Of a stretch of 64,000 nucleotides of DNA, positions 5,142 through 64,000 are shown piece after piece. The stretch's first letter is position 1; every line of letters begins with the position of its first letter. The translations under genes were made by a program, and so were the position numbers. Origin of the DNA: Escherichia phage wV7; sequence record NC_019505.1. One strand, written 5' to 3'. The notes below the pieces were generated by a model. That model was given only the letters and a program-made list of their open reading frames with translations. It searched no databases and was not told the origin of the DNA.

Positions 5142-5951
5142 ATGCTTAAAGAACAACTGATTGCCGAAGCGCAGAAAATTGATGCTTCCGTTGCTCTTGA
5201 TAGTATTTTCGAATCAGTTAATATTTCTCCGGAAGCAAAAGAAACTTTCGGCACTGTATTCGAAGCTACCGTCAAGCAGCACGCCGTTAAATTAGCTGAA
5301 TCTCATATCGCTAAAATTGCTGAAAAAGCAGAAGAAGAAGTAGAAAAAAATAAAGAAGAAGCAGAAGAAAAAGCTGAGAAGAAAATCGCTGAGCAAGCTT
5401 CTAAATTCCTTGACCATCTTGCAAAAGAATGGCTCACTGAAAATAAATTAGCAGTAGATAAAGGTATCAAAGCCGAACTGTTTGAATCCATGCTTGGTGG
5501 ATTGAAAGAGCTCTTCGTTGAACACAACGTTGTTGTTCCAGAAGAATCAGTTGATGTTGTAGCTGAAATGGAAGAAGAACTGCAAGAACATAAAGAAGAA
5601 TCAGCTCGTCTGTTCGAAGAACTCAATAAGCGTGACGCATATATCAATTATGTGCAGCGTGAAGTGGCATTGAGCGAAAGTACTAAAGATCTGACTGAGT
5701 CTCAAAAAGAAAAAGTCTCTGCTCTGGTCGAAGGTATTGATTATTCAGATGCATTCTCAAGCAAATTGAGTGCCATCGTAGAAATGGTGAAGAAATCTAA
5801 TAAAGATGAAAGCACTATTACTGAGAGTATAAATACTCCTGATACTGAAGCAGCCGGACTGAATTTCGTCACTGAAGCTGTAGAAGATAAATCTGCACAA
5901 GGTGCAGAAGATATTGTAAGTGTATATGCGAAAGTCGCATCTCGTTTCTAA
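5142..5951 (+). CDS. 22: Prohead scaffolding core protein gp22
   Basis: 269 aa, highly charged E/K-rich coiled-coil-like protein; T4 synteny before gene 23. Confidence 0.9.
   Translation: MLKEQLIAEAQKIDASVALDSIFESVNISPEAKETFGTVFEATVKQHAVKLAESHIAKIAEKAEEEVEKNKEEAEEKAEKKIAEQASKFLDHLAKEWLTENKLAVDKGIKAELFESMLGGLKELFVEHNVVVPEESVDVVAEMEEELQEHKEESARLFEELNKRDAYINYVQREVALSESTKDLTESQKEKVSALVEGIDYSDAFSSKLSAIVEMVKKSNKDESTITESINTPDTEAAGLNFVTEAVEDKSAQGAEDIVSVYAKVASRF
5828..5835 (+). promoter_or_regulatory. T4 late promoter box TATAAATA inside 3' end of gene 22 (candidate P23)
   Basis: Exact TATAAATA about 135 nt upstream of gene 23 ATG. Confidence 0.5.
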
Positions 5952-54400: not shown

Positions 54401-55361
54401 GTGGGGAAATCAATTTAGTGGGGAATTAGATACAACACGTTCTACCGTATTTGAAGTTAGTGATGAAACATCTAGTCATTTTTATTCTCAGCGCAATAAA
54501 GCTGGAAATATAACATTTAATATCAACGGTACAGTAACACCTATAAATGTTAATGCTTCAGGAACATTGAATGCAAATGGTGTAGCAACATTTGGTAATT
54601 CAGTCACTGCAACTGGTGAAATTATTTCTCGAAGCGCAAATGCTTTCCGTGCTATTAACGGAAATTACGGTTTCATTGTTCGCAATGATGGATCAGTAAC
54701 GAATTTTATGCTTACTGCATCGGGTGATCAGACTGGTGGATTTAATGGATTACGCCCATTAGCTATTAATAATGCATCTGGCCAAGTAACGATTGGTGAA
54801 AGCTTAATCATTGCCAAAGGTGCTACTATAAATTCAGGTGGTTTGACTGTTAACTCGAGAATTCGTTCTCAAGGTACTAAAACATCTGACTTATATACAC
54901 GTGCGCCAACATCTGATACTGTAGGATTCTGGTCAATTGATATTAACGATTCAGCTACTTATAACCAGTTCCCAGGTTATTTTAAAATGGTTGAAAAAAC
55001 TAATGAAGTGACTGGTCTTCCATATTTAGAACGTGGCGAAGAAGTTAAATCTCCTGGTACACTGACTCAGTTTGGTAACACACTTGATTCGCTTTACCAA
55101 GATTGGATTACTTATCCAACGACACCAGAAGCGCGTACCACTCGCTGGACACGTACATGGCAGAAAACCAAAAACTCTTGGTCAAGTTTTGTTCAGGTAT
55201 TTGATGGAGGTAACCCTCCTCAGCCATCTGATATTGGTGCTTTACCATCTGATAATGCTATAATGGGGAATCTTACTATTCGTGATTTCTTACGAATTGG
55301 TAATGTTCGCATTATTCCTGACCCAGTGAATAAAACTGTTAAATTTGAATGGGTTGAATAA
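51492..55361 (+). CDS. 34: Long tail fibre proximal subunit gp34 (1289 aa)
   Basis: Length 1289 aa as T4 gp34; internal fibre repeats. Confidence 0.95.
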   Translation: MAEIKRKFRAEDGLDAGGDKIINVALADRTVGTDGVNVDYLIQENTVQQYDPTRGYLKDFVIIYDNRFWAAINDIPKPAGAFNSVRWRALRTDANWTTVSSGPYQLKSGESISVNTAAGNDITFTLPSSPIDGDTIVLQDIGGKPGVNQVLITAPVQSIVNFRGQQVRSVLMTHPKSQIVLIFSNRLWQMYVADYSREAAVVTPASLYQAQSNDFIVRRFTSASAINIKLPRFANHGDIINFVDLDKLNPLYHTIVTTYDETTSVQEVGTHSIEGRTSIDGFLMFDDNEKLWRLFDGDSKARLRIITTNSNIRPNEEVMVFGANNGTTQTIELQLPTDISIGDTVKISMNYMRKGQTVKIKAAGEDKIASSVQLLQFPKRSEYPPETKWVTVQELVFNGETNYVPVLQLAYIEDSDGKYWVVQQNVPTVERVDSLNNSTRARLGVIALATQAQANADLENSPQKELAITPETLANRTATETRRGIARIATTAQVNQDTTFSFADDIIITPKKLNERTATETRRGVAEIATQQETNTGTDDTTIITPKKLQARQGSESLSGIVTFVSTAGATPASSRELNGTNVYNKNTNNLVVSPKALDQYKATPTQQGAVILAVESEVIAGQSQEGWANAVVTPETLHKKTSTDGRIGLIEIATQSEVNTGTDYTRAVTPKTLNDRRATESLSGIAEIATQVEFDAGVDDTRISTPLKIKTRFNSTDRTSVVALSGLVESGTLWDHYTLNILEANETQRGTLRVATQVEAAAGTLDNVLITPKKLLGTKSTEAQEGVIKVATQTETVAGTSSNTAVSPKNLKWIVQSEPTWAATTTVRGFVKTSSGSITFVGNDTAGSTQDLELYEKNSYAVSPYELNRVLANYLPLKAKAADSNLLDGLDSSQFIRRDIAQTVNGSLTLTQQTNLSAPLVSSSTATFGGSVSANSTLTISNTGTATRLIFEKGPQTGTNPAQTMTVRVWGNQFSGELDTTRSTVFEVSDETSSHFYSQRNKAGNITFNINGTVTPINVNASGTLNANGVATFGNSVTATGEIISRSANAFRAINGNYGFIVRNDGSVTNFMLTASGDQTGGFNGLRPLAINNASGQVTIGESLIIAKGATINSGGLTVNSRIRSQGTKTSDLYTRAPTSDTVGFWSIDINDSATYNQFPGYFKMVEKTNEVTGLPYLERGEEVKSPGTLTQFGNTLDSLYQDWITYPTTPEARTTRWTRTWQKTKNSWSSFVQVFDGGNPPQPSDIGALPSDNAIMGNLTIRDFLRIGNVRIIPDPVNKTVKFEWVE
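52810..53940 (+). repeat. Array of degenerate ~35-40-aa fibre repeats within gene 34
   Basis: Repeated motif T-E-T-R-R-G-(V/I)-A-x-I-A-T ... (I/V)-T-P-K-K-L at least 6 times; nucleotide repeats of ATCACTCCTAAAAAGCT. Confidence 0.7.
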
Positions 55362-55369
55362 GAGGTATT

Positions 55370-56485
55370 ATGGAAAAATTTATGGCAAAGTTTGGACAAG
55401 GATATGTCCAAACGCCATTTTTATCGGAAAGTAATTCAGTAAGATATAAAATAAGTATAGCGGGTTCTTGCCCGCTTTCTACAGCAGGACCATATGTCAA
55501 ATTTCAGGATAATCCTATCGGAAGTCAAACATTTAACGCAGGTCTTCATTTAAGAGTTTTTGACCCTTCTACAGGAGCATTGGTTGATAGTAAGTCATAT
55601 GTTTTTTCTACTTCAAATGATACAACATCTGCTGCTTTTGTTAGTTTCATGAACTCTTTGACGAATAATAGACTTGTTGCTATATTAACTAGCGGAAAGG
55701 TTAATTTTCCTCCTGAGGTAGTATCTTGGCTAAGAGTTGCGGGAACGTCTGCTTTTCCATCTGATTCTATATTGTCAAGATTTGACGTATCATATGCTGC
55801 CTTTTATACTTCTTCTAAAAGAGCTATTGCATTAGAACATGTTAAACTGAGTAATAGAAAAAGCACAGATGATTATCAAACTATTTTAGATGTTGTATTT
55901 GACAGTTTAGAAGACGTTGGAGCTACCGGGTTTCCAAGAAGAACATATGAAAGCGTTGAGCAGTTTATGTCAGCGGTTGGTGGAACTAATAACGAAATTG
56001 CACGTCTACCAACTTCATCCGCGATAAGTAAACTTTCTGACTACAATTTAATTCCTGGCGATGTTCTTTATCTTAAAGCACAACTATATGCTGATGCCGA
56101 TTTACTTGCTCTTGGAACTACAAATATATCCATCCGTTTTTATGATGAATCGGATGGATATATTTCTTCAACACATGCTGAGTTTACTGGACAAGCTGAG
56201 TCATGGGAATTAAAGGAAGACTATGTAGTTGTTCCTGAAAATGCAGTAGGATTTACGATATATGCACAAAGAACTGCACAAGCAGGTCAAGGTGGCATGA
56301 GGAATTTAAGTTTTTCTGAAGTATCAAGAAATGGCGGAATTTCAAAACCTGCAGAATTTGGCGTCAATGGTATTCGAGTTAATTATGTCTGTGAATCTGC
56401 TTCACCTCCAGATATAATGGTATTTCCTACACAAGCATCGTCTAAAACTGGTAAAGTGTTTGGACAAGAATTTAGAGAAGTTTAA
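55370..56485 (+). CDS. 35: Long tail fibre hinge protein gp35 (371 aa)
   Basis: AGAGG SD then ATG; length as T4 gp35. Confidence 0.85.
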   Translation: MEKFMAKFGQGYVQTPFLSESNSVRYKISIAGSCPLSTAGPYVKFQDNPIGSQTFNAGLHLRVFDPSTGALVDSKSYVFSTSNDTTSAAFVSFMNSLTNNRLVAILTSGKVNFPPEVVSWLRVAGTSAFPSDSILSRFDVSYAAFYTSSKRAIALEHVKLSNRKSTDDYQTILDVVFDSLEDVGATGFPRRTYESVEQFMSAVGGTNNEIARLPTSSAISKLSDYNLIPGDVLYLKAQLYADADLLALGTTNISIRFYDESDGYISSTHAEFTGQAESWELKEDYVVVPENAVGFTIYAQRTAQAGQGGMRNLSFSEVSRNGGISKPAEFGVNGIRVNYVCESASPPDIMVFPTQASSKTGKVFGQEFREV

Positions 56486-56490
56486 ATTGA

Positions 56491-56518
56491 GGGAGCCTTC
56501 GGGTTCCCTTTTTCTTTA
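56491..56518 (+). terminator. Rho-independent terminator after gene 35
   Basis: GGGAGCC-TTCG-GGTTCCC hairpin followed by TTTTTCTTTAT. Confidence 0.65.
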
Positions 56519-56524
56519 TAAATA
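56517..56524 (+). promoter_or_regulatory. T4 late promoter box TATAAATA upstream of gene 36
   Basis: Exact TATAAATA 24 nt upstream of gene 36 ATG. Confidence 0.5.
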
Positions 56525-56547
56525 CTATTAAAATAAAGGGGCATACA

Positions 56548-57204
56548 ATGGCTGATTTAAAAGTAGGTTCAACAACCGGAGGCTCTGTCATTTGGCATCA
56601 AGGAAATTTTCCATTGAATCCAGCCGGTGACGATGTACTCTATAAATCATTTAAAATATATTCAGAATATAATAAACCACAAGCTGCTGATAACGATTTC
56701 GTTTCTAAAGCTAATGGCGGTACTTATTTAAATAAAGTAATTTTTAATAAAGGAATGACTGTTCCTGGCGCAGGGTCAGGTGATAATGGTATTTTTGCTG
56801 GTCCTGGTGATAGTGCCACGTATGATACTACAAATATGGATATTGTTTCGTGGTATGGTATTGGTTTTAAATCATCACAAGGAACAGCAGGTAGAACTGT
56901 AGTAATTAACACACGAAATGGAGATATTAGCTCAAAGGGCGTAATTGAAGCATCACAAATCCGTGTAACTTCGTTATCACCAGTAAATAATTATGACCTT
57001 ACGCGGAAAGATTATGTTGATGGAGCAATAAATATTGTTACAGCAAACGCAAACTCTAGGGTATTACGCTCTGGAGACACTATGACAGGAAATTTAACTG
57101 CGCCAAACCTTTTTTCACAGAATCCTGCATCTCAACCCTCGCATGTTCCACGATTTGACCAAATTGTTATTAAGGATTCTGTTCAAGATTTCGGCTATTA
57201 TTAA
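56548..57204 (+). CDS. 36: Long tail fibre distal connector gp36 (218 aa)
   Basis: Length and position as T4 gp36. Confidence 0.85.
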   Translation: MADLKVGSTTGGSVIWHQGNFPLNPAGDDVLYKSFKIYSEYNKPQAADNDFVSKANGGTYLNKVIFNKGMTVPGAGSGDNGIFAGPGDSATYDTTNMDIVSWYGIGFKSSQGTAGRTVVINTRNGDISSKGVIEASQIRVTSLSPVNNYDLTRKDYVDGAINIVTANANSRVLRSGDTMTGNLTAPNLFSQNPASQPSHVPRFDQIVIKDSVQDFGYY

Positions 57205-57212
57205 GAGGACTT

Positions 57213-60200
57213 ATGGCTACTTTAAAACAAATACAATTTAAAAGAAGCAAAACTGCAGGAGCACGTCCTGCCGCTTCAGTATTAGCCGAAGGTGAATTGG
57301 CTATAAACTTAAAAGACCGTGTACTTTTTACTAAAGATGACCAAGGAAATATTATTGATCTGGGTTTTGCTAAAGGCGGTAGTATTGACGGGAATGTTAT
57401 TCATACAGGCAATTATAACCAAACTGGCGATTATACTTTAAATGGCACATTCACTCAGACAGGTAATTTTAATTTAACTGGTATTGCTCGAGTAACTCGT
57501 GATATTATTGCCGCCGGGCAGATTATGACTGAAGGCGGAGAACTTATTACAAAAAGTTCAGGTACAGCGCATGTTCGTTTTTTCGATGGCAATAGTCGCG
57601 AACGTGGAATCATTTATGCCCCGGCTAATGATGGTTTAACTACACAAGTACTTAATATCAGGGTTCAAGACTACGCCGCTGGTAGCGAAAGCACTTATGC
57701 ATTTTCAGGCAGTGGCCTATTTACTTCACCTGAAGTATCAGCATGGAAATCTATTTCGTCTCCACAAATTCTGACCGATAAAGTTATTACAAATGGGAAG
57801 AAGACAGGCGATTATGACATCTATTCATTAGCAAATAACACCCCATTATCTGAAAGCACTACTGCTATTAATCATCTTCGTGTCATGCGTAATGCCGTTG
57901 GTTCTGGTATTTTCCATGAAGTTAAAGATAATGATGGGATAACCTGGTATGCCGGTGACGGGTTGGAGGCTTATCTTTGGTCGTTTACGTGGTCCGGTGG
58001 GTTGAAAGCGGGTCATTCTATTTCTATAGGTACCCCAGGCGGTCCAAAAGGATATTCTGAATTAGGAACTGCTTCGATTGCTCTTGGTGATAATGACACC
58101 GGGTTAAAATGGCACCATGATGGATATTATTTCAGCGTCAATAATGGAACGAAAACATTTTTATTTAGTCCTAGCGAAACAACTAGCCTAAGAAAATTTG
58201 TAGCTGGATATTCTACTAACGGAACCGATTTAACTACTCCTCCGACTGAAAACTATGCTCTTGCTACTGTCGTGACATATCACGATAATAACGCGTTTGG
58301 AGATGGTCAAACTCTTTTAGGATATTATCAAGGCGGTAACTATCATCACTATTTCCGCGGTAAGGGTACCACAAACATTAATACTCATGGCGGTTTGTTA
58401 GTTACTCCAGGTAATATTGACGTTATTGGTGGTTCTGTTAATATCGATGGTAGAAATAATTCTTCTACACTGATGTTTAGAGGTAACACAACTGGTAGTA
58501 GTTCAGTTGATAATATGACAATTTCCGTTTGGGGCAATACGTTTACTAATCCTAGTGAAGGTACCCGTAAAAATGTTATGGAAATTTCTGATGCAACTAG
58601 CTGGATGAGCTATATTCAACGAACAACTGCAGGTAAAGTTGAATCGGTTATAAATGGCACCCAGATTGTTAATGAAAACTTGACCGTAGTAAAAAATGCT
58701 ACATTTGATGGTACAATCAGCGCAGCAGGTGAAATTTCATCTGGTGCAGTGAATGCGCTTCGCATTTGGAACGCAGATTATGGAGCCATTTTTAGACGTT
58801 CAGAAGGTAGTCTTCATATTATTCCAACTGCTTATGGTGAAGGCAAAAATGGTGATATCGGTCCACTTCGCCCGTTTAGTATGGCTTTAGATACTGGTAA
58901 AGTTACTATTCCAGATTTACAATCAAGTTACAATACGTTTGCTGCTAACGGTTATATTAAATTTGTTGGTCATGGAGCGGGTGCAGGTGGTTATGATATT
59001 CAGTATTCACAAGCTGCTCCTATTTTCCAAGAAATCGATGATGCTGCTGTAAGCAAATATTATCCTATTGTTAAACAGAAGTTTTTAAATGGTAAAGCTG
59101 TCTGGTCTTTGGGTACTGAAATTAATTCAGGTACATTTGTTTTACATCATTTGAAAGAAGATGGTTCACAAGGCCATACATCAAGATTTAATGCTGATGG
59201 TACAGTTAATTTCCCCGATAATGTTCAAGTCGGCGGCGGTGAAGCTACTATTGCTAGAAACGGTAATATCTTCTCTGATATTTGGAAAACATTTACTTCT
59301 GCCGGAGATACTACAAATATTCACGATGCGATAGCTACTCGTGTTGCCAAAGAAGGCGATACGATGACTGGCAAATTAATCGTTAGAAGAGGCTCTGACG
59401 CTATTAACATTGCTGCCGATGAAAATGATTCTTGCTATTTACTTGGAACATCGGGTGGAGCGAATTCATGGTACATCGGTAAAGGAGGAGCAGATGACAC
59501 TGCTTCATTTTATAATTTCAAAACTACCGCAGGAATTACTCTTAATAGTGTTGGTGATATTGATTTTAACGTCAAAAATCAAGCTACTGCAGCTTCATTA
59601 AATTTTTATCGTTTATATTTAAATGGAAGACAATGGACAGCTACACAAGGTCACGGCTATAATAATCAATGGCAAACAGAAGCCCCATTCTTCGTTGACT
59701 TTGGTGAATCTGTTCCGAAAGATAGTTATATGCCTATAATTAAAGGAAGAAGCCAAATCATTAACGAAGGATATGCCACAAAGGCAGATTTTGGTATTAT
59801 TCGATTGGGTGGAAATGCTACTTGGGGAAATGCAGTAATTCGTGTTGGTTCTGCGGAAAGCGGAGATAGCAGTCATCCTAATGCAATATTTGTGTTTCAG
59901 GCTAATGGTGATTTTAAAGCTCCGGTTGGCCTTCGTGCTGGTGTTAACTTGGGCGTCGGCACAATTCCAGTATGGGGCGGAGCATCTATCGCCATCGGGG
60001 ATGATGATACCGGTTTAGTTCATGGCGGCGATGGTCGAATTAATATGTATGCTAACTCGCAGCATATAGCATCATGGGGCACGATGTATCAATCTCATCC
60101 AGGCCTTTGGGATTCAAATGGAGCTTTTTGGACAGAAGTTGGCAAAGCAATTATTTCTCATGGCCATTTAGTTCAGGCGAATGACAGCTATTCAACGTAT

Positions 60201-60557
60201 GTCCGCGATGTTTATGTCCGCTCTGATATTCGTGTTAAAAAGGACCTAGTTAAATTTGAAAATGCTTCTGAGAAGCTTTCAAAAATTAATGGTTACACTT
60301 ATATGCAGAAGCGAGGCCTAGATGAAGAAGGTAATCAGAAATGGGAACCAAACGCTGGGTTAATTGCTCAAGAAGTTCAAGCTATTTTACCTGAATTGGT
60401 TGAAGGCGATCAGGATAGTGAAGCTTTACTTCGTTTGAACTATAACGGTGTAATTGGTTTAAATACAGCTGCAATCAATGAGCATACTGCAGAAATTGCA
60501 GAACTTAAGTCAGAGATTGAAGAGCTTAAAAAATTAGTTAAATCATTGTTAAAATAA
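57213..60557 (+). CDS. 37: Long tail fibre distal subunit gp37 (1114 aa) with C-terminal intramolecular-chaperone domain
   Basis: Conserved N-terminal region [22 protein letters not shown]...; C-terminal ~110 aa has an S-D-I-R-V-K-K motif and coiled-coil tail typical of self-cleaving S74-type chaperone domains. Confidence 0.9.
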
Positions 60558-60562
60558 AATGA

Positions 60563-60576
60563 GGGGCTTCGGCCCC
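60563..60576 (+). other. C(UUCG)G hairpin between genes 37 and 38
   Basis: GGGGC-TTCG-GCCCC immediately upstream of the gp38 GGAGG SD. Confidence 0.5.
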
Positions 60577-60588
60577 TTGGAGGTTTAT

Positions 60589-61383
60589 ATGGCAGTTGAA
60601 GGACCGTGGGTAGGATGGTCTGCGAGGGTACAAACTGGAGACCCTTGGATGGGTGGTGCCGCGCTGAGATTGAGAATGGGAATTCCGTTTTGGATGAGTA
60701 ATATGATAGGTCGATCTGTTGAAGTAATTCACACCCTTGGAGCGGACCATAACTTCAATGGTCAATGGTTCCGAGATAGATGTTTTGAGGCAGGTAGTGC
60801 ACCTATAGTGTTTAATATTACCGGAAATTTGGTATCATATTCTAGAGACGTTCCTTTATTCTTCATGTACGGAGATACACCTAATGAATATGTTCAGTTG
60901 AATATTGGTGGCGGCGTCCATATGTGGGGTAGAGGTGGACAAGGTGGATGGACTCATTCCGGCGGAGATGGTAATGGTCAACAAGGTGGTCATTGTATTC
61001 AAAATGACATCGGTGGACGATTAAGAATTAATAACGGTGGAGTAATTTGTGGTGGAGGTGGAGGTGGAGGTGGTATCGCTTATCGTCCTCACTCTGGTGC
61101 AAAATGGCAAGATATTGGTGGTGGTGGAGGAAGACCATTTGGCCCAGGAGGAGGCGGAGGTTATTCCGGCGGCGCAGCTTCTTATGATGGCCCAGGAGGT
61201 GGTTATAATTATGGTAATGCTCACTCTGGCCAGGGTGGTGATGCTGGCGCAAATGGACAAAATGCCTGGCATGATGGCGGTAAAGTTCTAAAAGTTGGAG
61301 CTGGTGGCGCTGCCGGATATGCTGTTATAGGATCAGCTCCAACATGGCAAAATGTTGGAGTAATATATGGTCCAAGGGTATAA
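60589..61383 (+). CDS. 38: gp38 receptor-recognising adhesin, T2-type with glycine-rich motifs (264 aa)
   Basis: ATG at 60589 is preceded by GGAGG; the ORF-track ATG at 60559 overlaps the hairpin and lacks SD. Runs of GGGGGGGG and GPGGGGG separate variable segments. Confidence 0.85.
61051..61270 (+). repeat. Glycine-codon microsatellite-like repeats (GGTGGA)n inside gene 38
   Basis: ggtggaggtggaggtggaggtggt at 61051-61074 and further GGN runs; produces spurious overlapping ORFs in other frames. Confidence 0.7.
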
Positions 61384-61414
61384 TTTTGAATAAATATCCT
61401 TAAAAGGAGGGTCT

Positions 61415-62077
61415 ATGGCAGCACCTAGAATATCATTTTCGCCCTCTGATATTCTATTTGGTGTTCTAGATCGCTTGTTCAAAGATAACGCTACCGGGAA
61501 AGTTCTTGCTTCCCGGGTAGCTGTCGTAATTCTTTTATTTATGATGGCGATTGTTTGGTATAGGGGAGATAGTTTCTTTGAGTACTATAAGCAATCAAAG
61601 TATGAAACATACAGTGAAATTATTGAAAAGGAAAGAAACGCACGCTTTGAATCTGTCGCCCTGGAACAACTCCAGATAGTTCACATATCATCTGAGGCAG
61701 ACTTTAGTGCGGTGTATTCTTTCCGCCCTAAAAACTTAAACTATTTTGTTGATATTATAGCATATGAAGGAAAATTACCTTCAACAATAAGTGAAAAATC
61801 ACTTGGAGGATATCCTGTTGATAAAACTATGGATGAATATACAGTTCATTTAAATGGACGTCATTATTATTCCAACTCAAAATTTGCTTTTTTACCAACT
61901 AAAAAGCCTACTCCCGAAATAAACTACATGTACAGTTGTCCATATTTTAATTTGGATAACATCTATGCTGGAACAATAACCATGTACTGGTATAGAAATG
62001 ATCATATAAGTAATGACCGCCTTGAATCAATATGTTCTCAATTCGTCGATGAGGGTTTTCTTATCTTCTTGGGTTAA
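61415..62077 (+). CDS. t: Holin T (220 aa)
   Basis: GGAGG SD; single N-terminal TM segment (VAVVILLFMMAIVWY) then large periplasmic domain; matches T4 T organisation. Confidence 0.85.
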   Translation: MAAPRISFSPSDILFGVLDRLFKDNATGKVLASRVAVVILLFMMAIVWYRGDSFFEYYKQSKYETYSEIIEKERNARFESVALEQLQIVHISSEADFSAVYSFRPKNLNYFVDIIAYEGKLPSTISEKSLGGYPVDKTMDEYTVHLNGRHYYSNSKFAFLPTKKPTPEINYMYSCPYFNLDNIYAGTITMYWYRNDHISNDRLESICSQFVDEGFLIFLG

Positions 62078-62257
62078 TTCAGAAACAATTTTACGGAATG
62101 AATTCTGATTTAATTTTCTACCTTCATGCGTTACTCCAATCTCATTCAGAAATGCAATAAAATTAGCACGATTCTCAACAATATCTTCTCTGGAAAATTT
62201 AATCAAAATAGACGCAACAGTAATAATTTCACGAACTGTATCAATATTTTTATTCAT
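62027..62257 (-). CDS. asiA: AsiA anti-sigma70 factor, 76 aa with divergent/short C-terminus
   Basis: First ~72 residues match recalled T4 AsiA (MNKNIDTVREIITVASILIKFSREDIVENRANF...); ends as ...LIDELRTY and overlaps the 3' end of t by 51 nt. Confidence 0.8.
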   Translation of the reverse strand: MNKNIDTVREIITVASILIKFSREDIVENRANFIAFLNEIGVTHEGRKLNQNSFRKIVSELTQEDKKTLIDELRTY

Positions 62258-62269
62258 TAACTATACCAC

Positions 62270-62422
62270 TCAATTAGTTGACTTTGTTATAATATCATCA
62301 GACGCTTGATTTGTAAACTGGTCTGTGTTATTTTCTTCAAAAATTTTTTCTACGAATTCCTTGAACGACTCACGTTCCTGAGCTACATTATGCTCGATTA
62401 CCATTTCAAGATTATGACTCAT
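62270..62422 (-). CDS. Possible small ORF (50 aa) coupled to arn stop
   Basis: ATG overlaps arn stop (ATGA); below the ORF-track cut-off; acidic; no SD assessed. Confidence 0.3.
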   Translation of the reverse strand: MSHNLEMVIEHNVAQERESFKEFVEKIFEENNTDQFTNQASDDIITKSTN

Positions 62423-62697
62423 TCGAAATAATCTTCAATTTCGTAATCATGGACGTAAATCATTATAGTTTTTAATACATCATCAATACTTTTTCCTGGA
62501 GCTGGAATTACATAAAAATATCCTGCTTTTGAGAGGTCTTTATAAGTTCCAACCAAGAAATCGTTATTCTCAAGATGTAGTTCTTCAACTAATTCATTGA
62601 CAATTGAGTGGTATAAATTTGGTAGAAACTTATATAGCTTTTCTAGAATATCAATTTTGATTGTATATTGAACCACGGATTGAGAATCAATAATCAT
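62419..62697 (-). CDS. arn: Arn anti-restriction (anti-McrBC) protein (92 aa)
   Basis: Length 92 aa and sequence MIIDSQSVVQYT... consistent with recalled T4 Arn. Confidence 0.8.
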   Translation of the reverse strand: MIIDSQSVVQYTIKIDILEKLYKFLPNLYHSIVNELVEELHLENNDFLVGTYKDLSKAGYFYVIPAPGKSIDDVLKTIMIYVHDYEIEDYFE

Positions 62698-62780
62698 AGA
62701 CCTTCCCCTTATGTTTCTGTTTGCGATTAGATTCTTTAAACGCTTTCTTCTTATCCTTATGAACAGAAGCTTTATTAAAA

Positions 62781-62999
62781 TTATGTTTTGCGACTAAATT
62801 GTTCATAGTGCTGAATTACCTCTCTTAAACATTTGCATGTGAATGAAAACTTTTTAGCTACACCACATTCAAATATATGTTCTCTTAAATCACGTGTATC
62901 GGTATATCCCATCTCAACAATAAAATGCCGTATTAAATTTTTATCTTTATCATTGAGAGAATTAAAATAGTCAGATTTTGAATTAATTTCCCTGGCCAA
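62781..62999 (-). CDS. Hypothetical Cys-containing small protein (start uncertain; TTG at 62999 or ATG giving 44 aa)
   Basis: No ATG at the ORF-track start; first in-frame ATG is 28 codons downstream. Confidence 0.35.
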   Translation of the reverse strand: MAREINSKSDYFNSLNDKDKNLIRHFIVEMGYTDTRDLREHIFECGVAKKFSFTCKCLREVIQHYEQFSRKT

Positions 63000-63279
63000 A
63001 TTGAATCACCTTCAGTTGACGTTTTAATTCTTTTATCATTTCTTCGTTCATCGCAATATAAAGATCGCGTAAAGCAGGTTTTAGCATTCCATTTATTGGA
63101 GAACTAAATGGACATACATAATCTTTTCCTACGAGCTTTTTGGTGAATTCCATATCACAGAACTTAAATCCCGGCTCATTGGTATAAATTCCCCAATTAG
63201 TTGACATCATTTTATTAGCATATTCCAGTGCCTGGATTTGATTCATAATTCCATCAATTTGAAACTTTTTAATATTCAT
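62983..63279 (-). CDS. Hypothetical protein (98 aa)
   Basis: ATG start overlapping upstream stop. Confidence 0.5.
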   Translation of the reverse strand: MNIKKFQIDGIMNQIQALEYANKMMSTNWGIYTNEPGFKFCDMEFTKKLVGKDYVCPFSSPINGMLKPALRDLYIAMNEEMIKELKRQLKVIQFGQGN

Positions 63280-63740
63280 TAGTAAAGGTCCTCAGAGTAA
63301 AGTTCTTTTTCACTACCACCACGTTCAATACGTACTTGTCCAGCGTAAGTTGCAATAATCATTGCTTCTTCACGTGTCCAATAATTACTATATTGGTCAA
63401 TAAACCCTTGGTCATCATCACAAACTTGCTGAGTAACTAATTGAGGTTTAACTACATCTAAAACTTCTGCCATATCTTTAGAATAATGACGAGCACCTGG
63501 AATAACAAGAGTTCGTCCATCTTTTAATTTAAAACGATTAGCTGCACAGACAATTCGTCGTTGATACTTTTGGTTTTCATCCCAGTACGCAGTCTGCCAA
63601 CAGATTTCAGGAACTTCTTTCAGAATATCTTCTTCTGTGCATTTATAACCATGCGCTTTAAATTTTTGAACAAGACTCTCCGGAGTCTCACGAGATAAAG
63701 GCACATTCAGCATTTTTAAACGATTAATAAATGGGTTCAT
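63279..63740 (-). CDS. Hypothetical protein (153 aa)
   Basis: ATG start; intact ORF in the arn.x region. Confidence 0.55.
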
Positions 63741-64000
63741 TTAAACCATCCTTTAATACGTTGCCACAAAGTTTTCTGCTGAGCTTTGTTAACACCAATT
63801 GAACGAATAACCGGTTGAGATTCCTGGAATTCTTTATAATCGGCAAGGTAAATTTCGTAAGCTGCATCCGTAAATGAACTTATCGCTGCCATAAAATTAT
63901 TGCGAATACCTACTGGAGCATCTTTACTTTCACGAATAATCATGTATTTACCAGTCTTAATCTTTACAATAGTTCCAAGATAAGCTCCATGGTACCAAAT
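63737..64000 (-). CDS. Hypothetical protein, possibly 5'-truncated by window end
   Basis: ORF track starts at ATG 63943, but the frame stays open upstream to the window edge. Confidence 0.45.

Follow-up and report, generated by a model that had tools for sequence, protein, structure and literature searches.

The gene at 60589..61383 of the window – the whole 64,000-nucleotide stretch of Escherichia phage wV7 (NC_019505.1) that was analysed – is gene 38, and its 264-residue product is a tail-fibre adhesin (receptor-recognising protein) of the T2/S16 type. Pfam, PDB and fold matches, together with the g37-g38-t context, carry this identification and bear out the glycine-rich adhesin of the original prediction. 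With high confidence we place the gene in a Tequatrovirus with long tail fibres of the T2/T6/S16 type, whose receptor would be OmpA and whose host range would change by way of loops and modules, not through the length of a glycine tract. That gp38 is an adhesin is already known: two homologues have crystal structures, the family has been studied by domain swaps and in large-scale screens for receptors, and the exact protein is in public databases. Features lie on the plus strand of the window unless marked otherwise.

The literature on related phages suggests how the protein may work. A single gp38 monomer would cap the tip of the gp37 trimer, its N-terminal bundle (residues 1-46) plugging W7, W20 and W35 into pockets of the gp37 tip, presumably once the gp37 chaperone domain has come off. 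Residues 47-113, with the C-terminal strands, would make a small beta-helix, and the glycine motifs of residues 114-243 would pack as polyglycine-II (PGII) helices into a three-layer sandwich with G155-G162 as the central helix; the segments between motifs would emerge as five distal loops contacting the outer-membrane protein. Host range could shift when single residues of loops B, D and E are replaced, or when entire modules are traded, either gp37 along with the N-terminal part of gp38 or the set of C-terminal loops. The (GGTGGA)n periodicity of the central tract would be incidental, arising from the choice among synonymous codons within a poly-Gly helix that the structure holds fixed.

Reading frame, family and predicted fold

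The ORF at 60589..61383 (+) runs from ATG to TAA, and the 264 residues that it encodes are exactly identical to the database gp38 of Escherichia phage wV7; its DNA is 99.9% identical at the nucleotide level to that of O157 typing phage 7, where the product is annotated 'tail fiber adhesin'. The tail-fibre genes are ordered g34-g35-g36-g37-g38-t, with g37 at 57213-60557, g38 at 60589-61383 and t at 61415-62077. A Shine-Dalgarno sequence, GGAGG, lies at 60579-60583, and the ATG of g38 follows 5 nt further on. We rejected a 274-residue version beginning at the ATG at 60559, which has no ribosome-binding site and starts 1 nt past the g37 stop, and which the annotated relatives forgo, all of them taking the 264-residue start. 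Spurious ORFs in other frames over the GGN-rich part of the gene had been anticipated, and there are four: 61047..61187 (+, 46 aa), 61049..61291 (+, 80 aa), 61021..61272 (-, 83 aa) and 61028..61252 (-, 74 aa), all with low-complexity translations such as WWRWRWRW and VEVEVEV.

Some features of the surroundings deserve mention in their own right. Just after the g37 stop codon, sequence and RNA folding reveal a C(UUCG)G hairpin (60560-60579) that abuts the GGAGG of the g38 ribosome-binding site, the two together occupying 60560..60583; the fold of 60545-60600, across the g37-g38 gap, has a minimum free energy of -17.1 kcal/mol (z = -2.1). Scans for sigma-70 promoters and terminators around g38 returned sites no more numerous than in shuffled sequence. 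Compared with typing phage 7 the window is missing 87 bp at ~62040, so that t and asiA, which converge there, both lose their 3' ends; those 87 bp are present in all 12 best-matching phage records. Further upstream, gp35 gives an above-threshold match to the Pfam ILEI family.

Family membership is plain. The protein matches Pfam PF05268 (GP38) over the full profile (1-218; E=9.7e-69, 232 bits against a cut-off of 25) and PF21721 (Gp38_N) over residues 1-40 (E=2.3e-19, 69.5 bits against a cut-off of 25). In the PDB, sequence matches were found to the receptor-binding domain of PP01 gp38 (9V85; E=1e-73) and, over the full length, to S16 gp38 (6F45 chain D; E=3e-48). An AlphaFold2 model built from 55 homologues (mean pLDDT 86.6) recovered the same two structures when compared with the PDB by Foldseek – 9v85 with E=7e-27 and TM 0.84, 6f45_D with E=4e-22 and TM 0.82 – and beyond them the next match reached only E=0.65. 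The model thus predicts a beta-helix plus a polyglycine-II sandwich with a long central glycine helix. Glycine motifs alternate with hypervariable segments, the arrangement characteristic of the adhesin family.

Three regions can be distinguished. Residues 1-46 (60589..60726) correspond to the gp37-attachment domain, a three-helix bundle recognised from Gp38_N, the model and the conservation of its Trp anchors, which are kept among 98 homologues at W7 in 89, at W20 in 88 and at W35 in 92; in S16 gp38 three such Trp serve in attachment to gp37 (PMC6851490). AlphaFold2 places helices here at 10-16, 19-27 and 36-39 with low pLDDT, as expected for a model made without gp37. Residues 47-113 (60727..60927) form the central beta-helix domain, which aligns to the PP01 gp38 receptor-binding domain and to S16 gp38, is modelled as beta strands with pLDDT 81-95, and is 85-94% identical to the gp38 of T6, M1, PP01-like phages and Ac3. 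Residues 114-243 (60928..61317) comprise the polyglycine-II sandwich and receptor-recognition loops, as judged from Foldseek, glycine content and identities, the last of which fall to only 43-48% against adhesins with other loop sets, namely PP01-like (OmpC), T6 (Tsx) and M1, whose beta-helix part is 85-93% identical to ours.

The partner protein is of the matching type. Gene 37 (57213..60557) encodes the distal long-tail-fibre subunit of 1114 aa, which would form the trimer capped by gp38. Residues 921-1114 of gp37 match the S16 gp37 tip (chain 6f45_A) with E=2e-45, and its C-terminus gave no match to the T4 gp37 tip structure. The last part, residues ~1004-1114 (60222..60557), is a Peptidase_S74 intramolecular chaperone domain with a coiled coil; it aligns with the C-terminus of S16 gp37 and has PF13884 at residues 1004-1063 (E=1.2e-12); from what is known of the family, this domain is presumably cleaved off.

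These observations bear directly on whether gp38 might instead be the T4-type protein, a non-structural chaperone for the assembly of gp37. 'Distal long tail fiber assembly catalyst' does stand in some records as the name of the identical or a near-identical protein, but it is inherited from T4 and is wrong for the present gp38. Its 264 residues, poly-Gly runs, adhesin Pfam families and adhesin crystal-structure folds all speak against such a role, as do the chaperone domain that gp37 carries for itself and its S16-type tip; alignment with the T4-type chaperone, named at the outset as the result that would overturn the adhesin assignment, was not seen, the matches being to adhesin families and structures only. 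We give the chaperone reading practically no credence, and proceed with gp38 as an adhesin.

The central glycine tract

Glycine makes up 71 of the 264 residues (27%), and 37% of residues 115-264. Only three runs reach five or more, so that the 'runs of 5-8 glycines' expected of the protein hold for three motifs and slightly overstate the rest, which are GG or GGG. The longest is the 8-Gly tract G155-G162 (61051..61074). The 5-Gly motif G177-G181 (61117..61131) belongs to a conserved GGGGGRPFG, in which G180, G181 and P183 are invariant in the homologue alignment and the run of five is present in 89 of 98 homologues. The second 5-Gly run, G187-G191 (61147..61161), is lineage-specific – five glycines are found there in only 34 of 98 homologues – and by alignment to PP01 L181-W189 lies partly at the position of PP01 loop C.

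The DNA of the 8-Gly tract, GGT GGA GGT GGA GGT GGA GGT GGT, that is (GGTGGA)x3 + GGTGGT, is undeniably repetitive. Tandem Repeats Finder reports 61051-61073 as a period-6 repeat of 3.8 copies with 100% match over 23 nt, and at a minimum score of 40 the 64-kb window holds just two perfect repeats, of which this is the sole short-period one. Given the Gly codon usage of the gene (GGT 33, GGA 26, GGC 12), hexamer periodicity over eight Gly codons would arise by chance in ~0.5-1% of cases. The periodicity is therefore mildly unusual, yet it is short and inherited within one lineage.

A central issue is whether this repeat is a source of variation. The original prediction saw in it a slippage-prone coding microsatellite, whose in-frame expansion and contraction would diversify the adhesin and make the tract a hotspot of host range. 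The perfection of the repeat stood up to analysis; the slippage did not. Among 98 homologues (36-100% identity) we found no indel confined to the tract and no insertion column inside it. Positions 156-160 hold glycine in 95-96 of the 98, and the apparent run length of 6-9 reflects substitutions at the flanks alone (G155 to S or A, G162 to A). In the close relatives – 26 cluster representatives at least 91% identical – all eight positions are retained without exception, with a single G156V substitution. Nor is the repeat itself conserved: HY03 and L001 encode the same eight glycines as GGC GGT GGT GGC GGT GGT GGC GGT, F1, AV119, FL08 and others use further synonymous patterns at constant length, and the GGTGGA alternation is common, among the relatives compared, only to the window, typing phage 7, CE1 and RB32. 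Relatives with proteins 95-97% identical to the present one are without hexamer periodicity, which marks it as a lineage-specific synonymous pattern. (The codon comparison drew on 13 related viral-contig loci, too few for population statistics, to which six phage records were added.) Two hallmarks of a contingency locus were thus looked for and not seen: neither the 98 homologues nor the 26 of them at 91% identity or more showed a length polymorphism limited to the tract, and the repeat unit is not kept up at the level of DNA.

Structure points in the same direction. The tract aligns residue for residue with S16 GGGGGGGG and PP01 GGGGGGGG, and in S16 gp38 this segment is the long helix 3 (151-GGGGGGGG-158), one of ten polyglycine-II helices in a three-layer sandwich whose central glycine-rich motif, GRM 3, has a saturating network of main-chain hydrogen bonds to its neighbours (PMC6851490). 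In T6, viable phage could not be recovered after deletion of GRM2, GRM3 or GRM4, and deletion of the hypervariable segment HVS2 was likewise non-viable (PMC3157838). Taken together, the PGII alignment, the fixed length, the synonymous codons and the T6 deletions argue for a length-constrained structural element in which the repeat-like DNA is incidental, and indicate that the 8-Gly tract is a fixed helix rather than a variable microsatellite.

What can be said in favour of slippage, apart from the repeat being perfect, periodic and unique of its kind in the window, comes from two metagenomic homologues, P0049 and P0088. Both lack the whole stretch that separates the 8-Gly tract from the 5-Gly tract after it, and with it loop B, as misalignment between tracts is expected to produce; these are the only length changes that touch the tract. 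But the lost segment is HVS2, essential in T6, and both sequences come from assemblies and may be artefacts, so that the deletions could reflect either misalignment or assembly collapse. GGN tracts have also been proposed as sites of recombination between adhesin genes (PMC3157838, PMC12032242). On this point we considered, and rejected, the ends of tblastn HSPs at ~146-149 and ~176 as recombination breakpoints: the low-complexity filter of BLAST masks Gly runs, and alignments end there in any case. With 3.8 copies, the hexamer is a short substrate for slippage. All told, a slippage-driven hotspot seems very unlikely. Rare, counter-selected variants of ±6 nt may nonetheless arise inside a phage population, beyond the reach of a between-species comparison. 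One might even speculate that in the RB32/typing-phage-7/wV7 lineage the periodicity yields low-frequency variants of ±2 Gly or, more plausibly, 8-Gly/5-Gly misalignments that delete loop B, some of them viable and altered in receptor use; this would give the lineage a built-in source of adhesin length variants, and we regard it as a decided long shot. The tract is best read as a structural helix and not as a mutational hotspot.

Loops, modules and the receptor

If the glycine tract is constant, where does variation sit? The loops were mapped by hand from an alignment of gp38 with PP01 onto the PP01 loop definitions (PMC12892980), and their boundaries are approximate. The equivalent of loop A (PP01 W119-I124) is at residues ~121-127 (WTHSGGD; 60949..60969), loop B or HVS2 (PP01 Q161-V170) at 163-176 (61075..61116), the equivalent of loop D (PP01 N204-Y209) at ~206-212 (YNYGNAH; 61204..61224) and that of loop E (PP01 N225-S231) at ~228-234 (HDGGKVL; 61270..61290). 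In the 26 close relatives the variable positions cluster at residues 4-46, 107-110, 167-174 (loop B), 200-210 (around loop D) and 221-228 (loop E). Within loop B positions 167, 168, 172 and 174 vary, with K172N in 21 of 26; within loop D the variable positions are 207, 208 and 210; and position 228 in loop E is H, Y, S or N, K172N and H228Y being common polymorphisms. Across the wider set of homologues, indels and substitutions concentrate in 121-132, 163-176 and 186-242, with none in GRM1 (114-120) or in 133-154; only P0049 and P0088, with their large deletions, show gaps in the Gly tracts 155-162 and 177-185. Close relatives vary, then, not in the length of the glycine tract but in the N-terminal attachment module and at loops B, D and E.

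That segments between glycine motifs set porin specificity, as was assumed from the start, is well documented (PMC3157838, PMC12032242, PMC12892980, bioRxiv 10.64898/2026.04.02.716166). A single loop substitution is able to switch the receptor of a gp38 adhesin, as with Q206L in RB68, and in PP01 loop E governs recognition of OmpC (PMC12892980). Near relatives carrying K172N or H228Y consequently need not behave alike.

A second kind of variation involves whole modules. The 98% DNA match to RB32 starts at 60669, at about codon 27 of g38; most of g37 upstream is unrelated, and gp37 past its first 67 residues is either unrelated to RB32 gp37 or only 37% identical to it. Exchange thus involves two modules, one made up of gp37 together with the attachment domain of gp38 and the other of the receptor-binding part, a division that fits the structural role of the gp38 N-terminal domain. 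It also qualifies the view of the gp37-attachment region as conserved: the family and its three Trp anchors are indeed retained, but among near relatives this is the most mosaic part of gp38, exchanged together with gp37.

The receptor itself can be narrowed from the OmpA/OmpC/FadL types initially proposed. Every one of the 23 differences between this gp38 and that of RB32 falls in residues 1-46, and residues 47-264 are 100% identical. Infection by RB32 requires OmpA and is also affected by LPS composition (Trojet et al., PMC3157838), and chimeras of RB5 with the 400-bp HVS segment of RB32 gain RB32 specificity (PMC3157838). AV119 and FL08, whose gp38 is respectively 95% and 92% identical to ours and 94-95% identical for both in the PGII/loop region, have 'type 1' adhesins, which depend on OmpA and accept a wide range of its variants (Lutz et al. 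2025, PMC12032242); the two phages infect hosts that carry all the OmpA variants tested (PMC12032242). The loop set (HVS1-4) matches that of adhesins with experimentally shown OmpA dependence. On the strength of the identity to RB32 over residues 47-264, we infer OmpA as the receptor and, as for RB32, a sensitivity to the composition of LPS.

This assignment has to be weighed against the possibility that on natural O157:H7 or Salmonella hosts the adhesin uses another receptor, for example OmpC as PP01 does. The phages with the nearest genomes had E. coli O157:H7 or Salmonella as their isolation hosts; for O157 typing phage 7 and KIT03, which carry this or a near-identical adhesin, the host was O157:H7, whose O-antigen and OmpA variants could alter the receptor actually used. 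The beta-helix is 91% identical to PP01-like gp38, and single substitutions can switch the porin. A further counterpoint is that gp37 and the N-terminal module differ here from those of RB32, the N-terminus of gp38 having been suggested to influence recognition in phage PST (Trojet et al., PMC3157838). The literature library searched yielded no receptor data specific to wV7, typing phage 7 or KIT03. Against this, the PGII/loop region is just 46% identical to PP01-like gp38 while the whole of residues 47-264 is that of RB32; the C-terminal segment alone suffices to transfer OmpA/LPS specificity (PMC3157838); and AV119 and FL08, of the same loop set, depend on ompA (PMC12032242). A receptor other than OmpA is accordingly unlikely. 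The OmpA reading makes OmpA dependence and sensitivity to LPS composition predictable from the RB32 identity, and for host-range engineering it would recommend mutating or swapping loops B, D and E, or moving residues 47-264 as a block, with the N-terminal 46 residues matched to the resident gp37.

Comparison with known systems

With T4 gp38 the present protein shares the gene number and a position downstream of g37, but T4 gp38 is an unrelated chaperone absent from the virion (PMC6851490) and gives neither a sequence nor a fold match here. The S16 tip complex (6F45) offers the full-length counterpart – gp38, the gp37 tip and chaperone domain, the three Trp anchors and the 8-Gly helix 3 – whereas overall identity to S16 gp38 is ~44%, and the loops and host differ. 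PP01 gp38 (9V85) has the same fold, a beta-helix 91% identical and the 8-Gly central tract; the PGII/loop region, 46% identical, sets it apart, with loops A-E unlike ours in sequence and length and with OmpC of O157 as the receptor.

Closer in loop set and in the lengths of the glycine tracts are the gp38 proteins of AV119 and FL08. They differ by 12-14 substitutions, several of which (P167V, K172N, D200V, G201A, N207Q, A221G and H228S) fall in loops B, D and E, by one residue fewer at 107/108, and by other codons in the tract. Typing phage 7 gp38 departs by K172N alone and that of KIT03 by K172N and H228Y, the flanking genes being the same. With the gp38 of RB32 and RB33, residues 47-264 are identical, the DNA is 98% matched from 60669 and the GGTGGA codon pattern is shared; residues 1-46 carry 23 differences and a two-residue change in length, and the adjoining gp37 gene of RB32, 3084 nt (1027 codons) long, is a different allele from the one that here encodes 1114 residues.

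Sequence missing at the t/asiA junction and from gp38 homologues

Over 55000-64000 the window is 99.97-100% identical to O157 typing phage 7 apart from a gap: 87 bp are absent at ~62040, at the junction between the convergent genes t (holin; 61415-62077, + strand) and asiA (62027-62257, - strand). This loss leaves the 3′ ends of the two ORFs sharing 51 nt in a tail-to-tail overlap. In comparison with typing phage 7, the holin – 220 aa in the window – has an altered C-terminus (...ICSQFVDEGFLIFLG), while AsiA is reduced from 90 to 76 aa and ends ...KKTLIDELRTY. The gap may be a genuine deletion affecting two important genes, or it may be an assembly error. No obvious direct repeat was seen at the junction, and the 87 bp are kept in all 12 of the 12 best-matching phage records.

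Two metagenomic gp38 homologues (P0049 and P0088) each lack the entire segment from the 8-Gly tract to the following GGGGG tract (loop B, or HVS2). The pattern is as if these two GGN tracts had recombined; alternatively, it is as if the tracts had been collapsed by a short-read assembler. A T6 phage with the equivalent HVS2 deletion is non-viable.

A hairpin and repeats in and beyond the tail-fibre genes

Three nucleotides past the stop codon of g37 lies a stably folding hairpin (AGGGGC-TTCG-GCCCCT; 60560-60579, + strand) whose tetraloop is C(UUCG)G and whose 3′ end adjoins the Shine-Dalgarno sequence of g38. Its 56-nt context has an MFE of -17.1 kcal/mol (z = -2.1). There is no T run 3′ of the hairpin on the + strand, and a terminator scan returned a terminator-like call on the - strand only. 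Its candidate roles lie in the stability of the RNA or in coupling or occluding translation.

Within the 3′ end of g37 itself, a 21-nt unit repeated 1.9 times (60490-60529; 84% match) codes for a heptad-like segment in the coiled coil of the gp37 C-terminal chaperone domain. Elsewhere, an imperfect GAA trinucleotide array (5322-5383; 17 copies, 71% match) probably codes for a poly-Glu/Lys run in a gene with no relation to these.

Names and domain matches

Among the database homologues P0001, HY03, Bp7 and SA21RB, adhesins identical or near-identical to the window's gp38 carry various names: 'distal long tail fiber assembly catalyst' (a legacy of T4 gp38), 'tail protein and peptidase' and 'hypothetical protein'. 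All three names mislead for the T2/S16-type gp38 adhesin family. In the tail-fibre hinge protein gp35 (55370-56485), residues 58-112 match Pfam PF15711, 'ILEI, interleukin-like EMT inducer', at 32.3 bits (E=1.4e-7), above the gathering score of 27 bits; a small beta domain may be what the two have in common.

A mosaic boundary within g38

Comparison with the RB32 locus (L021) places a recombination boundary inside g38, at 60669 (~codon 27). From this point through t the window is 98% identical to RB32 at the DNA level, whereas 5′ of it almost the whole of g37 – 1114 aa in the window, 1027 codons in RB32 – is unrelated, as are the opening ~27-46 codons of g38. That identity to RB32 should begin inside g38, with unrelated sequence upstream, argues that gp37 and the gp38 attachment domain act as a single exchangeable module.
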